Below are positions 15,869 to 57,033 of a stretch of 64,000 nt of DNA, piece after piece. Position 1 is the first letter of the stretch; each line of letters opens with the position of its first letter. The DNA lies in assembly GCF_044324785.1 (NCBI RefSeq), contig NZ_CP172127.1; one strand, given 5' to 3'. The stretch is from Escherichia coli (GTDB lineage: Bacteria > Pseudomonadota > Gammaproteobacteria > Enterobacterales > Enterobacteriaceae). The notes under the pieces were generated by a model. That model ran no database searches. It was not told the DNA's origin and saw only the letters and a list, made by a program, of their open reading frames with translations. A program made the translations under genes and the position numbers.

Positions 15869-15892
15869 AGAGGCATTTTGGCGGAAGATCAC
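15869..15892. repeat. Distal attachment-site direct repeat: 24-bp copy of the selC 3' end (tggcggaagatcacaggagtcgaa)
   Basis: Exact 24-bp identity with 57010..57033, which is the 3' end of tRNA-Sec. Confidence 0.8.
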
Positions 15893-16037
15893 AGGAGTCG
15901 AATATGAATGTTAATGTTTTGATTTTAAATGATTAATCTGTGTTGGATAAATGAGTAACCCCCATAAGAACCCCCAAATAACTTTGTGTAAGGGAATGAA
16001 GCTAAAATACACAATCGAATCAATTCTTAGAGCTTTA

Positions 16038-16880
16038 TTATGAAGGTAACACTCCCGGATAGTGTTTCGCAATAATATCATTCAGCCTGTCAACCAGTTC
16101 TGGTTTCCTGAACCTGATGTGCGCGGAGCCTTTCTTAAAGTATCTGATGCTGAACATCTCATCTTCATAGCATTCTTTACCCTGAACAGACCGGATGTGA
16201 TCATCCAGACGAATAGTGATGTTTTCCCGGTTGTCGGGGATCGGTTTGCCGCTGAACAGATGTAGCATTCTTTCCAGGTCGACGAGTCGGTCAGTCTGTT
16301 GCCCGGTGATAAGATGAAACCCCCACCGGTCCCACCTCACCAGGTTGTTGACGATAATTTTACTGCCAAATTTGCAGGGGCAATTGGTTTTGTAATTCCA
16401 GCTCAGTCCCCTGAAGACGTTGATCACCCCTCGCTCAAACACCTCATCCTTATTCTGGTGTAGTTGTTCAAATGTGATCAGAATGTTCGCTTCACTGATT
16501 TCCGGAAAATTATCGTACTCCAGTGACCGGTACCATGTATCACGGGCCTGTGCATCCATTAAGGAAAGCATCCCTGAACGTTGCATCAGGTCACGCCAGA
16601 TTTCGCGATCGAGATTGCGTGTGATGGCTTTCATTGCGGTTTCCGGTTTCTCCATCAGCCAGCAGCCGCAGCGAAAATCCTGTTTCATGGCCCAGCCCGG
16701 GGCGGCTTTACCGCCAATACTTTCTGTCATTGCTGATATTTCAGCCAGTTGCCGGATAAGTGTGTCGATTTGCAGCAGTGTACTCTTTCGTACAGCCAGA
16801 ATGTGGCGGATACTGGTTGAGCAGATAACGTCCGTATGCCCGGTGACCACTTCCGGACGGGAGATTGTGATGTCTGACAT
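16038..16880 (-). CDS. Conserved island-end protein (DUF4942-like, methyltransferase-like)
   Basis: 280 aa; terminal gene of the yeeP…cbtA-type module; a truncated second copy of its 5' end is at 30782..30940. Confidence 0.5.
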   Translation of the reverse strand: MSDITISRPEVVTGHTDVICSTSIRHILAVRKSTLLQIDTLIRQLAEISAMTESIGGKAAPGWAMKQDFRCGCWLMEKPETAMKAITRNLDREIWRDLMQRSGMLSLMDAQARDTWYRSLEYDNFPEISEANILITFEQLHQNKDEVFERGVINVFRGLSWNYKTNCPCKFGSKIIVNNLVRWDRWGFHLITGQQTDRLVDLERMLHLFSGKPIPDNRENITIRLDDHIRSVQGKECYEDEMFSIRYFKKGSAHIRFRKPELVDRLNDIIAKHYPGVLPS

Positions 16881-16964
16881 TATCGGTTTCCCTTTTGGTT
16901 TATAAACGAAAACGCCAGCCCTGTTCAGGCTGGCGTCAGTGGAATGAAGTATGGTGAGTGAGGC

Positions 16965-17390
16965 TCACGCGCTCAGGTGAATGAGTTGCAGGTGACGCAG
17001 GGTGCGGACATCCTCCCTGGCCTGTTCGATACAGGGCAACAATGCTGCCGAATCCGTTTTATCCTCATCGTTGTCGAAAATAATTCCGGACCCGCAGTCG
17101 ATATTGTCCTGCAGCCACGCAATGAGGATATCCAGCGCTGTTTCAGTGGTTAATGGCATCACGCTCTGTATCACTGTATTGTCTTCCGGCAACTGATGAG
17201 AGCTGGCAGAAGTCGCCGGTGTTTCGGTAGCGTCACGTTCATCCACCACGCGGAGTGAATAACCGTTTTCAGCGACCTTGTTAATCAGTTCAGTGAGCTC
17301 AACACCATCAATGTCAACGACAATTCGCCCTATATTCAGTGCCTGTACGTTAACGCTGTCTGCTTCCAATGTCAGGGCCAGTTTCATCAT
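16965..17390 (-). CDS. Hypothetical protein downstream of cbtA (YeeW-like position)
   Basis: 141 aa, acidic; overlaps the cbtA stop by 4 bp; its 3' end is duplicated at 30616..30705. Confidence 0.55.
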   Translation of the reverse strand: MMKLALTLEADSVNVQALNIGRIVVDIDGVELTELINKVAENGYSLRVVDERDATETPATSASSHQLPEDNTVIQSVMPLTTETALDILIAWLQDNIDCGSGIIFDNDEDKTDSAALLPCIEQAREDVRTLRHLQLIHLSA

Positions 17391-54070: not shown

Positions 54071-55114
54071 CTACTGATACTGTATGCCAGAATGTTTCCT
54101 GCCTGCTGCTGAAAACGGCAATATCCAGGGCCAGACATATTCACCATTCATATTTCTGCATTTCTGTACAATTTTCTCAGAAAGCGTCTCATCAATTCTT
54201 TCACGCAACTTCTCCTGCTGTCTTAAAATACTTTCGTATATTTCGAAATCATCTTCCTGCATCAGCATTTCGGCGCATTTAATGATTTCTGCCCGTTCAT
54301 GCAGCACAGAGGAATGGTTATAGAGCCAGTTTACAAACAGCAATGCTTCCGGATATTGTCCCCATAATGGTGAGTATGTTGTATAATAATCTTCGGCAGT
54401 ATCCGGCCCTGCAGAATAGTTATGCCATACAGCAAGAGGAAATGGATGCAGATTTCCGCACAGCATTTCCGCGATGTAAGTATTTGCCGCAAATCCGCGA
54501 CGAAATGCAGTTGCAGCTTTTACCAGTTCCCCATTAAGAAAATGCAGAAGACCAAGTTCATACCAGTAAGGTGAAAATTCATCAGCATGTTTTTTCAGTA
54601 CACTGAAGGCTCGCTCATGATCACCTGTTCGTAACAGTTCTGAACCCAACAACCAGCGGGCACCCTGATTATCTTCAGGATTGTATGCCAGTATTTTATC
54701 AGTAAGCATAACCGCATCCTGATGACGCTGTAAGTGCACATTTGCGAGAATTGCTGCATAAAGCGCGCGCAGATAAGGCCGGTTTTCGGGATGCATCCAG
54801 ATGATTTCACCACTGAAACTTTCCGGGATGAGACGATTACCGGCCGCCAGTCCTTTAAGCGCGGCGTTCAGAGCCTTACGCGGGGCATTCTGCTCCAGAA
54901 ATGCATATGCCAGATGAGCGTGTATATCAATAAAGTCAGGCTCCCGTTGAGCAAGATGCCTGAGTTTGTTGATGTAACTCGTCTCGCTGATTTCATCAGT
55001 GTCGTATGCATCAAGCACTTCTTCAAACTCCCCCAGTAATGGGCCAAACCAGGTATCCGGAAATACGAAATAACCCTTGTTATCGTGCACTTCAAAGCAT
55101 AATCTATCGTTCAT
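54071..55114 (-). CDS. Hypothetical alpha-helical (possibly TPR-like) protein adjacent to the integrase
   Basis: 347 aa; no recognisable catalytic motif. Confidence 0.5.
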   Translation of the reverse strand: MNDRLCFEVHDNKGYFVFPDTWFGPLLGEFEEVLDAYDTDEISETSYINKLRHLAQREPDFIDIHAHLAYAFLEQNAPRKALNAALKGLAAGNRLIPESFSGEIIWMHPENRPYLRALYAAILANVHLQRHQDAVMLTDKILAYNPEDNQGARWLLGSELLRTGDHERAFSVLKKHADEFSPYWYELGLLHFLNGELVKAATAFRRGFAANTYIAEMLCGNLHPFPLAVWHNYSAGPDTAEDYYTTYSPLWGQYPEALLFVNWLYNHSSVLHERAEIIKCAEMLMQEDDFEIYESILRQQEKLRERIDETLSEKIVQKCRNMNGEYVWPWILPFSAAGRKHSGIQYQ

Positions 55115-55525
55115 TTTCTGAGCCTGTAAAACATGTGGTGATATAGTCTGAGAGCATAAAAGTTGAGATTCTGTGTATCAAGTCCTGTCTTGGCACCGAA
55201 TGAATATTGCTTACGAAGCCCCTTCATGCTTTCCTTGAGAACAATAATTTTATCTTTATGTGAATCTCATTTTTTATAATGATGTCAGATGATTGAAATG
55301 CTAAATTATATCTGAATCAACTTTTCCTTTGCTAAAGGTATCGAAATAACTGCAAGATTGTATTTTGTAATTGCCAATTTAAAAATGTCAATTTGTTTTT
55401 AATTATGTTTTTGTAATAAGTTTGAAGACACAAAAAAATAATATAATAACAAAAATCCTCCAGCCTTGTAGGCCAGAGGATAAAATACTTAATTGAGGAA
55501 AACATCAGGGAAAAGTATTTCTGAC

Positions 55526-56710
55526 TTAACTTTCCCGGCTGGAGAGTGAATCAATGTAATCAGCGTACCATTGCATCATTTCACGGCGGCCATCGAGATA
55601 CAGGGCATGATTATAGGTACCCCTGATGGAATTTTTATCCACATGAGCTAACTGCATTTCAATCCAGGCGGAGTTAAAGCCTTGTTCATGCAGAATTGTA
55701 CTCATGGTGTGTCTGAAACCGTGCCCTGTGAGTCTTCCCTTATATCCAAGTAATTCAATTACTTGGTTAATGCTTTCCTTACTAATTGGTTTGCGGGGAT
55801 CATTTCTACCGATAAAGACTAGGGGATGATGTTTTGAGATTGGTTCAAGCTGCTTAAATAGCATAATAACCTGCTCAGAGAGCGGCACAATATGAGGTCG
55901 CTTCATCTTCATTACTTCTGCCGGGATCTCCCACAATTTTGTCTCAAAATCGATATCTTCCCAGCGTGCAAAACGCAGTTCTTGTGTTCGTACGCCGGTT
56001 AACATAATGATCTGAGTAGCTGTCTTAGTGATTATACTTCCGGTATAACCCGCCAGATCGTTGAGGAAGTGGGGAAGTTCATTAGCAGTAAGAAAGGGAA
56101 AATGTACTTTTTTCGGTGTAGCTAAAGCACTGGCAAGATCGGGGGCTGGGTTATAGTCTGCCCGGCCAGTAACAATTGCATAGCGGAACACCTCACCACA
56201 GCGCTGGCGGACCTTGCGCATTTTCTCCAGAGCTCCACGTTTTTCCATTTTACGCAGTGCTTCCAGTAACTCCATTGGTTTGATTTCGGCAATAGGGCGC
56301 TTGCCAATGTAGGGAAAAATGTCTTTTTCAAAGGTATCAATGATTTCATCACGATAGCGTAATGACCACCGATCGGCTTTTGACTGGTGCCATTCGCGAG
56401 CAATAGCCTCGAACGTATTTTTCAGACTTATTTGCTGCGCGATTTTTTCTTCCTTTTTTGCCTCCCCTGGATCGCCTCCAGCAGCGAGGAGTTTCCTGGC
56501 TTCACTGCGTTTCTCGCGAGCATCGGCTAGCGTTACATCGGGGTATACGCCAATAGAAAGCATCTTTTCTTTACCAGCAAAGCGGTACTTCATGCGCCAG
56601 TATTTAGAACCATTAGTGTTAATCAGTAGATACATACCGCCGCCATCAGCAAGCTTATAGGGTTTGTCTTTGGGTTTTGCGGTTTTCACTTTGATATCGG
56701 TTAATGCCAT
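55526..56710 (-). CDS. int: P4-type tyrosine integrase
   Basis: 394 aa; N-terminal MALTDIKVKTAKPKDKPYKLADGGGMYLLI… and C-terminal catalytic region (…HGFRHT…LAHVDKNSIRGTYNHALYLDGRREMMQWYADY…); adjacent to tRNA-Sec. Confidence 0.9.
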   Translation of the reverse strand: MALTDIKVKTAKPKDKPYKLADGGGMYLLINTNGSKYWRMKYRFAGKEKMLSIGVYPDVTLADAREKRSEARKLLAAGGDPGEAKKEEKIAQQISLKNTFEAIAREWHQSKADRWSLRYRDEIIDTFEKDIFPYIGKRPIAEIKPMELLEALRKMEKRGALEKMRKVRQRCGEVFRYAIVTGRADYNPAPDLASALATPKKVHFPFLTANELPHFLNDLAGYTGSIITKTATQIIMLTGVRTQELRFARWEDIDFETKLWEIPAEVMKMKRPHIVPLSEQVIMLFKQLEPISKHHPLVFIGRNDPRKPISKESINQVIELLGYKGRLTGHGFRHTMSTILHEQGFNSAWIEMQLAHVDKNSIRGTYNHALYLDGRREMMQWYADYIDSLSSRES

Positions 56711-57009
56711 GACATCCTCCGGCTTTTGATGAATTCATGTTCCTGAGGGGGATTTCTGCCAGTAACTAACCTGATACCCCCAATACACCCCTTGTATAAC
56801 AAAGATGTTGTTAAAAGCCGTTGTTATGTATCACATTTTTCCTATTATGGGGGTGCTTGTATTTCAATAGGAAATAACACCCCCTAAAGTACCCCCAAAA
56901 GAAACTTGATACGGGGTGAAGTAGGTTGACCTCAGGATACAAATAAATACTGATATACAAGGGATTAGAAGAGATTTATTGACATTGGGAGAGTTCAGAA
57001 GAGGTAAAC

Positions 57010-57033
57010 TGGCGGAAGATCACAGGAGTCGAA
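57010..57033. repeat. tRNA-proximal attachment-site repeat (identical to 15869..15892)
   Basis: 24-bp exact match; lies within the 3' end of selC. Confidence 0.8.

Follow-up and report, generated by a model that had tools for sequence, protein, structure and literature searches.

The analysed stretch of Escherichia coli DNA (contig NZ_CP172127.1 of assembly GCF_044324785.1; 64,000 nucleotides, hereafter the window) very probably contains, inserted at the 3' end of the tRNA gene selC, an integrative genomic island of 41.1 kb that belongs to the E. coli CP4/P4-integrase class, carries a block derived from a Klebsiella chromosome and has spread recently. The elements that define the island and its integration are the following:

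57010..57104, minus strand: selC, an intact tRNA-Sec gene with anticodon TCA (ARAGORN; Rfam RF01852 at 83.8 bits against a gathering score of 47)
57010..57033: proximal copy of a 24-bp direct repeat (attL core), an exact match to the 24 nt with which selC ends
15879..15902: distal copy of the repeat (attR core), an exact match at the boundary with the setC flank
55526..56710, minus strand: P4-family tyrosine integrase of 394 aa (Pfam domains and alignment with P4 Int)
27441..27677, plus strand: AlpA/Vis-type helix-turn-helix (HTH) protein of 78 aa, 33% identical to P4 Vis

The repeat, TGGCGGAAGATCACAGGAGTCGAA, occurs in exactly two copies in the window, and no match to it arose in 100 shuffles of the window that preserved dinucleotides; the repeat is not a product of chance. 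The two copies are separated by 41,107 bp, and the island measures 41,131 bp with one copy included. Of 5,426 complete E. coli genomes, 2,487 contain the predicted empty site (15600..15902 followed directly by 57034..57340) as one uninterrupted sequence, with identities of up to 99.5%, indicating that the repeats bound the island exactly and that no ancestral core sequence lies inside it. A first-pass annotation, made by a model from the sequence of the window, had proposed a classic tRNA-integrated island of about 41 kb, a proposal that would be undermined if core-genome comparison showed parts of the region to be ancestral. The intact selC, the repeat, the adjacent integrase, the measured spacing and the precise empty site bear this proposal out. 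The exact repeat reported there is also real and its proximal copy was placed correctly, but the distal copy had been put at 15869..15892, which is 10 bp too low. That the region is ordinary chromosome, with a repeat that arose by coincidence or through misassembly, has next to no chance of being true, given the shuffled sequences, the empty site and the occurrence of the same island with the same ends in independent complete assemblies.

The core gene to the left of the distal repeat is setC. A second integrase, and with it a tandem island left of the distal repeat, was suspected because the open reading frame (ORF) at 14058..15242 also encodes 394 aa, the same length as the integrase; this ORF is unrelated to the integrase and corresponds to core setC. 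The gene for tRNA-Sec, which is full length according to both ARAGORN and Rfam, is the sole tRNA gene of the window, and a search of the whole window with Rfam at the gathering threshold returned tRNA-Sec and nothing else.

The integrase gene adjoins selC at a distance of 300 bp. Its product has the domain order Arm-DNA-bind_3 (PF13356, 5.9e-30), Phage_int_M (PF22022, 8.4e-36) and Phage_integrase (PF00589, 1.1e-27), and it aligns with P4 Int over the full length with 45% identity (405 aligned positions, E = 2e-115), in keeping with the P4-type integrase beside selC of the first-pass annotation. The segments VRxxELRFARW and HGFR and the terminal segment containing a Y are aligned between the two proteins, and these segments surround the conserved catalytic positions. 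The best NCBIfam model is the enterobacterial PRK09692, which scores 317.4 bits and thus falls under the curated cut-off of 434, and the protein is a divergent member of the family. The module consisting of integrase, attL and selC is found in 1,510 of the 5,426 E. coli genomes, for example in REL606 at 99.4%. For the AlpA/Vis-type protein, PF05930 is recorded for a 78-aa product at the corresponding position in E. coli I2 (locus L088).

Near-identical copies of the island occur in other chromosomal backgrounds. E. coli ES1, a member of sequence type 38 (ST38; NZ_CP133856.1), matches the whole 41 kb at 99.7-100% identity in the same gene order, with 7 scattered differences and one divergent patch of 177 bp, whereas the flanks differ by 20 (left) and 13 (right) per kb, which places ES1 in a different host lineage. 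Compared with E. coli A65EC, the island has at most 0.25 differences per kb and the flanks 12-21 per kb, and the flanks of ES1 and A65EC also differ from each other. The shift in divergence falls within ~30 bp of the distal repeat and within ~180 bp (ES1) to 350 bp (A65EC) of the proximal repeat, the last difference in the left flank being at 15874 against ES1 and at 15868 against A65EC. Site-specific integration is the best explanation for one near-identical island in three chromosomal backgrounds with breaks at the repeats, and these comparisons point to recent horizontal spread of the selC island between unrelated E. coli lineages by this route. The selC island of A65EC lacks 19879..30585 and retains the last 28 bp of an element resembling the insertion sequence (IS) IS2, indicating that it is a deletion derivative of a window-type island; in addition, an IS1 replaces 50947..55165.

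Further evidence on the mode of arrival comes from six genomes in which attP-like junctions lie inside the chromosome in tandem arrays. In 14EC001, such a junction joins a CbtA-ended island to LEE (the enterocyte effacement locus), with the CbtA-ended island upstream of LEE. The attP-like junctions indicate that islands of this family stack at selC via the same core. It could be argued that the near-identical island arrived by homologous recombination of a large chromosomal fragment following conjugation or transduction rather than through the integrase, since E. coli swaps large chromosomal segments, hotspots near tRNA genes are recombinogenic, and flanks that are 98-99% identical are sufficient for homologous crossovers. 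We consider this quite unlikely: divergence falls from ~20 to ~0.2 per kb no more than ~30 bp from the distal repeat and, on the other side, is back 180-350 bp beyond the tRNA repeat, crossovers would need to hit both att cores in each of three independent backgrounds, and the tandem arrays show joining via the same core.

The distal core differs among relatives, reading TGGCGG-AGATC in ES1 and A65EC (23 of 24 positions matching) and TGGCGGAGGATC in 14EC001, with TGGCGGAAGATC as the third variant listed. It is polymorphic at one position (AA, A or AG), the invariant part being GATCACAGGAGTCGAA, and the tRNA copy is invariant in the window and in loci L001, L002 and L094. With 23 of 24 positions matching in relatives, the perfect 24-mer is specific to the strain of the window. 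The same 1-nt deletion in the distal copy is common to two unrelated backgrounds, which suggests that the distal-core variant arrived with the island; strand exchange would then take place near the extreme 3' end of the tRNA gene.

Likeness between the two junctions extends past the 24-bp core. When 15855..15878 is set against 56986..57009, 5 mismatched bases are followed by TCAGAAGAGG, which is identical, and ~18 of 21 bases are alike overall, one side being island DNA and the other 'chromosomal' flank. This likeness is compatible with the flank being a decayed island arm. A rhuM pseudogene fragment at ~15640..15800, between the distal repeat and setC, is also found in 'empty' selC sites. In Salmonella, rhuM is a gene of pathogenicity island SPI-3, which is itself inserted at selC, so that the 'empty site' of E. 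coli may itself be a fossil left by an older island.

Based on the P4 family, the tyrosine integrase would recombine the attP core with the identical last ~24 nt of selC. The end state is seen in the window as an intact tRNA gene on one side and a partial copy beside setC on the other. By the same analogy the AlpA/Vis-type protein probably controls excision, and a CbtA/CbeA gene pair together with KlcA/RadC-type genes probably aids the persistence and establishment of the island. The RefSeq annotation of the near-identical ES1 island contains no transfer or virion genes, and genes for a relaxase, type IV secretion or coupling are found neither among its 46 annotated features from selC to the distal repeat nor among family matches. 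With no such genes, the island must depend on other elements to move between cells, and it may carry an oriT.

The relationship to P4 raises the question of whether the element is a decayed P4-like phage satellite or cryptic prophage rather than a plain integrative island. P4 Int shares 45% identity with the integrase and P4 Vis 33% with the small HTH protein, several backbone proteins belong to PHROG families, and the K-12 relatives of the backbone (CP4-6, CP4-44 and CP4-57) are traditionally named cryptic prophages (PMC5371832). In a tblastn search of the window with all 13 P4 proteins, however, only int and vis were found; the alpha primase, sid, psu, delta and epsilon are absent, which argues that the element is not a P4-like satellite, and the annotation of the near-identical island holds no capsid, tail, terminase or lysis gene. 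A satellite or prophage origin is therefore very unlikely, and the element is better described as an integrative island.

The interior of the island includes a GC-rich block, which comprises the following features:

31199..41628: block of ~10.4 kb derived from a Klebsiella chromosome, GC 0.565
31341..32252, minus strand: predicted phosphorothioate-dependent restriction endonuclease (PT-REase; NF045808, 440.5 bits against a cut-off of 180)
32390..33028, plus strand: HNH endonuclease (NCBIfam and annotation)
33111..34790, minus strand: GH43 xylosidase-type hydrolase, 99% identical as a protein to that of K. pneumoniae ATCC 13883
34849..36342, minus strand: GPH-family transporter, matching the YagG model
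36715..38034, plus strand: xylA
38365..39747, plus strand: LamB-type porin
39778..40040: cluster of repetitive extragenic palindromes (REP), arranged as a bacterial interspersed mosaic element, with two ~124-bp tandem units containing TGCCGGATGGCGGCATA(C/A)ATGCCTTATCCGGCCTAC and a third, degenerate REP
40060..41019, minus strand: YbgA
41016..41567, minus strand: DUF3833 protein

Several lines of evidence connect this block with the Klebsiella pneumoniae complex. The GH43 protein is at most 91% identical to those of genera other than Klebsiella, and the nucleotide match to ATCC 13883 is 97.2% and extends through the HNH gene to 32230. The counterparts of these genes in K. oxytoca and K. michiganensis loci reach only about 81-86%. 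In a public assembly collection, 5,514 index blocks list the exact XylA protein. Genomes of 5.2-5.4 Mb carry a native array in which PT-REase, HNH, GH43, transporter, xylA, LamB-type porin, YbgA and DUF3833 are followed by a gene for 174 aa, DUF2878, CFA synthase and more, and in which variable defence genes lie just beyond the PT-REase gene. The block is 96.2-98.6% identical to these native loci, which are 97-99% identical to each other in their native flanks. The match starts at 31199-31713 and always ends at 41628, a few dozen bases after the DUF3833 gene ends, at the position of the adjacent Klebsiella gene. In Klebsiella, ybgA and the DUF3833 gene lead into an adjoining, apparently unrelated gene cluster. 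One native locus (L086) has the tRNA-Leu(CAA) gene leuX 4.3 kb from the PT-REase gene, and in another (L085) a CP4-type module (KlcA, DUF932, RadC, DUF987) abuts the same block in a Klebsiella context. Taken together, gene content and identity indicate that the block is an arbitrary stretch of ~10.4 kb of K. pneumoniae-complex chromosome from beside the leuX hotspot rather than a metabolic cassette assembled for a purpose.

At least 80% of the block is present in 11 of the 5,426 complete E. coli genomes, in ten of them at 99.9-100% identity to the window and in LH50-c at 98.8%, and the E. coli copies sit in both selC and leuX islands. The near identity of 10 of the 11 copies argues for one main introduction of the block into E. 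coli.

The product of 31341..32252 is predicted to be a phosphorothioate-dependent (type IV) restriction endonuclease of the SBD-HNH type; PF26340 (DNA-SBD_ScoMcrA) and PF13391 (HNH_2) are recorded for its 289-aa orthologues in loci L086-L088. REP palindrome tails, CTTATCCGGCCTAC, are present as two exact copies and one degenerate copy at 39790..39982, between the porin gene and ybgA, and the tail patterns occur nowhere else in the island. The full-length E. coli REP consensus (Y and Z2 types) gave no match with up to 6 mismatches, and the tail motif alone found the REPs. The part of the cluster at 39823..40040 is a ~124-bp tandem duplication, whose unit consists of a REP palindrome and a GC-rich palindrome of the form CCCGGC...GCCGGG. 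Where the first-pass annotation had described a GC-rich metabolic block carrying REP elements, the GC content and the REPs are as described, although the REPs are confined to 39778..40040 and the block also holds two restriction-type nucleases. The K-12 element CP4-6 carries a pair consisting of a GPH transporter and a GH43 xylosidase (yagG and yagH).

The DNA next to the PT-REase end of the block bears on how the block was acquired:

30614..31041, plus strand: far-end remnant of another CP4-type island, with a C-terminal fragment of a DUF957 gene, an N-terminal fragment of a DUF4942 gene and an HTH fragment

Within this remnant, 30615..30918 shares 86% identity with 16750..17053 read as the reverse complement, and the two form an internal duplicate of 306 bp. 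An arrangement of two tandem elements in the same orientation was considered and set aside, as the duplicate is inverted relative to 16750..17053 and the remnant points into the Klebsiella block. The remnant reads DUF957', DUF4942' and HTH' (primes marking fragments) and then PT-REase, the order with which GI-leuX of strain 131 also closes at its far end. Wherever an E. coli copy was examined, the block's PT-REase end abuts this remnant in the expected polarity. A remnant that points into the block is what would be expected if a leuX island and its chromosomal flank became one unit.

Most likely, a leuX island would have fused with its chromosomal flank in Klebsiella, the fused leuX element would have entered E. 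coli once, and its interior would later have been exchanged between leuX-type and selC-type islands. Stated in full, with a CP4-type leuX island of the K. pneumoniae complex fused to ~10.4 kb of chromosome, a single crossing between genera, swaps of the integrase, and spread of the selC version to hosts that include ST38, this history has in our judgement about an even chance of being correct. Exchange of the interior is illustrated by E. coli H8 (NZ_CP010172.1), whose leuX island holds this interior behind a different, 421-aa integrase.

Alternatively, the Klebsiella block could have come on a plasmid or transposon and been inserted by IS activity into a pre-existing island, without ever having been the flank of a leuX island. 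Among plasmid records that match the block, 126 of 146 are from Klebsiella, many of which have porin, ybgA and DUF3833 at about 97%; on one K. pneumoniae plasmid of 550 kb, 77% of the block lies beside ISVsa5. Partial matches occur in six E. coli plasmid records, a 99.94% copy lies beside Tn3, MobC and ars genes in a further genome (L092), and the window has no detectable leuX att remnant. Against this stand the abutment of the PT-REase end on the DUF957'-DUF4942'-HTH' remnant with the expected polarity in every E. coli copy examined, the coincidence of the left edge of Klebsiella homology with the start of the variable region beside leuX in Klebsiella, and the CP4-type island that abuts the block within Klebsiella itself (L085). 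Neither end of the block in the window is bounded by an IS, the 31199 side and the 41628 junction both being IS-free. Delivery by plasmid or transposon is on balance unlikely, and capture as the flank of a leuX island is preferred.

The genome that contains L092 is 5.05 Mb in size (GCA_046569665.1). Its copy of 32470..41118 is interrupted by two IS elements and has a Tn3-family transposase gene, a resolvase gene, MobC-like genes and an ars operon as neighbours. This locus may be another mobile context for the block.

Some observations weigh against parts of the proposed history. A search of the window for the final 16-30 nt of leuX, in which as many as 6 mismatches were allowed, found no remnant of a leuX att site, and hence capture of the block from beside a leuX island is something we infer from gene order and polarity. 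No sampled Klebsiella genome is more than 98.6% identical to the block, and parts of the block also reside on large Klebsiella plasmids, which offer an alternative vehicle. The block of H8 is inverted relative to leuX in comparison with Klebsiella, and PT-REase fragments occur at several junctions, indicating that the real history has steps beyond this reconstruction. As for mobility, a search with the exact 46-mer over the predicted circle junction for a free attP gave no match in metagenome or viral contigs, and the AlpA-like gene lies 28 kb from the integrase gene after rearrangements. Finally, the GC content of the whole island, 0.513, is not unusual for E. coli.

The H8 locus (L004) is itself rearranged. 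A set consisting of HNH, PT-REase, HTH' and DUF957 is present twice in mirror orientation, at 12437..14568 and 27216..29627, and a third PT-REase fragment lies at 37863..38528, at the other end of the Klebsiella block. This arrangement points to inversions or recombination between PT-REase copies.

The far end of the island, next to the distal repeat, holds the following genes, which were assigned from the annotation of the near-identical island, NCBIfam, PHROGs and Pfam:

16038..16880, minus strand: DUF4942 gene
~16964..17161, minus strand: DUF957 gene
~17224..17389, minus strand: DUF5983 fragment
17387..17761, minus strand: CbtA toxin gene (Pfam CbtA_toxin, PF06755, 3e-61)
17851..18219, minus strand: CbeA/YeeU antitoxin gene (Pfam CbeA_antitoxin, PF06154, 4.7e-52)
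18269..18913, minus strand: gene for a hypothetical protein
~18931..19152, minus strand: DUF987 gene
19216..19692, minus strand: RadC/JAB gene
19708..20193, minus strand: KlcA antirestriction gene
20285..21103, minus strand: DUF932 gene
21289..22173, minus strand: YeeP-like GTPase gene, with a weak LeoBC match in PADLOC

The order of these genes is kept in islands at other sites in Ch1, H8, strain 131 and 14EC001, and the set is the conserved CP4-type backbone. In Ch1, this backbone lies beside ynjB in an aerobactin island. Membership in their families suggests that CbtA and CbeA function as a toxin acting against cell division and its neutralising antitoxin, and both genes lie where the first-pass annotation had placed a cbtA-type module. 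The 177-bp patch that differs from ES1 lies at 20105..20281, spans both the beginning of the KlcA gene and the spacer that precedes the DUF932 gene, and contains 63 differences. It looks like gene conversion from a paralogous island.

Gene identities in much of the remaining interior were taken from the RefSeq annotation of the near-identical ES1 island, with PHROGs also consulted for the regulatory and maintenance module at 25712..28952, to which the AlpA/Vis-type gene listed above also belongs by position. These features are, from the far end towards selC:

22276..25711: AT-rich stretch with two hypothetical genes and a gene-free region of 1.6 kb
22276..23229, plus strand: hypothetical gene (annotation)
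23226..24101, minus strand: hypothetical gene (annotation)
25712..26443, plus strand: Gp2-family protein (annotation)
26800..27372, plus strand: hypothetical protein (annotation)
27878..28426, plus strand: YfjJ-like protein (annotation)
28444..28952, minus strand: ProQ/FinO gene, frameshifted (annotation)
29285..30613, minus strand: IS2-like element of the IS3 family (termini read; inverted repeats)
41629..43687, plus strand: internal fragment, without both ends, of a beta-helical repeat adhesin (annotation; match to filamentous-haemagglutinin-type repeats)
43688..46129, plus strand: ISEc8 of the IS66 family (tnpA-tnpB-tnpC), 2,442 bp, with inverted repeats at 43688-43709 and 46108-46129
46130..47256, minus strand: IS3-family transposase debris, frameshifted and truncated (annotation)
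47983..49962, plus strand: PhoX-family phosphatase (RefSeq annotation)
50058..50801, plus strand: permease or transposase-like pseudogene fragment (annotation, NCBIfam)
51312..52028, plus strand: OmpW/Adr-like outer-membrane protein (annotation, NCBIfam)
52209..53711, plus strand: CptA-like phosphoethanolamine transferase (annotation, NCBIfam)
54071..55114, minus strand: tetratricopeptide-repeat protein (RefSeq annotation; weak NCBIfam matches only)

The interior is a patchwork joined at IS elements, and the Klebsiella block is its largest cargo. The IS2-like element joins two unrelated segments, and ISEc8 truncates the adhesin gene. No target-site duplication was found at ISEc8 and no clean one at the IS2-like element; the two are thus not simple insertions, and both mark joints of rearrangement. 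The stepwise assembly proposed by the first-pass annotation, like its several IS elements, is in agreement with these data, as modules of the island occur separately elsewhere in the form of the Ch1 backbone, the leuX interior of H8, the deletion derivative of A65EC and the Klebsiella block. Many poultry E. coli carry the segment 43689..53700 elsewhere in their genomes, with ~98.7% identity. The CptA-like transferase scores far under any MCR cut-off. The pair of genes for the outer-membrane protein and the phosphoethanolamine transferase adjoins the integrase both in the selC island (51312..53711) and in H8 (39781..42202 of L004).

Segments of the island range in GC content from 0.395 to 0.567, and the flanks, at 0.457 and 0.504, are close to the value for the island as a whole. 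The AT-rich mobile-module genes described earlier hold for 22201..25711, with a GC content of 0.395, but not for the backbone from CbtA to the GTPase, with 0.534. The AT-rich stretch at 22276..25711 gave no match in NCBIfam, PADLOC or Rfam. Within it, 24102..25711 has no ORF of more than 88 aa and no RefSeq gene, and Rfam was empty over 24000..25750 at E values up to 1. In Ch1, an IS2 is inserted in the counterpart of 24102..25711. PADLOC returned no matches for the tetratricopeptide-repeat protein, the two hypothetical proteins, Gp2, the YfjJ-like protein or DUF4942.

Outside the island, a low-GC (0.35-0.41) accessory locus occupies 1..12100, to the left of nlpA; between this separate locus and the selC island lie the core genes nlpA, yicL and setC. 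It includes an inverse autotransporter adhesin gene of the iatC/air type (7..3186) that runs off the start of the window, the gene for the HilA-like regulator eilA, and genes of the YopB/SseC and IpaD/SipD families, which resemble those for the translocon and tip of type III secretion. Among complete E. coli genomes, no match to this region is better than 96.5%, over 90% of its length, and none matches the flanks of the selC island at more than about 99.5%.

The island is of interest as a clean and datable example of transfer between genera, and its arbitrary stretch of DNA from beside a hotspot shows how islands may take up their neighbours. If the proposed history is true, islands with P4-type integrases are vehicles for flanking chromosomal genes, in a manner comparable to specialised transduction, and their integration modules are interchangeable. 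The same interior occurs behind selC and leuX integrases, which shows that members of this family can exchange their integration modules. Among the three unrelated E. coli backgrounds that carry the near-identical island is ST38, a high-risk clone that is clinically important. Traits predicted from the cargo are growth on xylo-oligosaccharides and restriction of phosphorothioate-modified DNA.

The class to which the island belongs, including the 24-bp repeat at selC, is already known, and the main value of this analysis lies in confirmation and in a precise map. A full-text literature search yielded no paper that mentions selC, leuX, Klebsiella, xylose and island together. Islands of the window type are already present in RefSeq genomes, where they are not annotated as islands. 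According to PMC6174562, a 24-bp direct repeat terminates selC insertions in E. coli, which usually have integrases of the CP4 type. The published selC islands, compared here by description (GIselC17584/1, and also LPA, SHI-2, PAI I-536 and LEE), have the selC 3' end as a common target and share with the window the 24-bp repeat, a CP4/P4-type integrase by the tRNA gene, a mosaic structure with IS elements and CP4-derived backbone genes. Their cargo differs: the window island is without a known virulence locus and carries the xyloside/xylose and restriction block, PhoX, the outer-membrane protein and phosphoethanolamine transferase, and the truncated adhesin. In E. coli that produce OXA-244, the carbapenemase transposon Tn51098 lies in a selC island with a variable region that includes leoB, encoding a GTPase (PMC12611639), and this may or may not be the window island. 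According to annotation, neither the window nor the island of ES1, which matches it in extent and gene order, has Tn51098 or a bla gene. If still mobile, the island would be relevant to the spread of the resistance context formed by Tn51098 in selC islands.

The leuX island of H8 shares with the window the block (99.9%), HNH, PT-REase, the remnant, IS2, ProQ, AlpA, Gp2, the GTPase, CbtA and DUF957. It differs in lacking PhoX, ISEc8 and the adhesin fragment, in having a truncated DUF3833 gene, and in its backbone, which is about 96% identical. The far end of GI-leuX in ST131-type strains has the order DUF957-hyp'-HTH' (hyp, hypothetical), the same as in the window remnant. The K-12 elements CP4-44, CP4-6 and CP4-57 can be likened to the island by the names of their gene families, which include AlpA, DUF932, antirestriction, RadC and DUF987 proteins, a GTPase of the YeeP/YfjP type, a type IV toxin-antitoxin system of the CbtA family, and, at a tRNA or tmRNA gene, an integrase of the P4 type (K-12 content in part from PMC5371832). 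The K-12 elements have other attachment sites and other cargo than the window island. The satellite phage P4 resembles the window island in its integrase family (45% identity), in its Vis/AlpA-type regulator, and in being integrated at a tRNA 3' end that is duplicated in the process. It differs in its primase, capsid-size, helper-exploitation and cos-associated functions, which the window island is without, and the island is four times the size of P4 and occupies selC, whereas P4 targets leuX.

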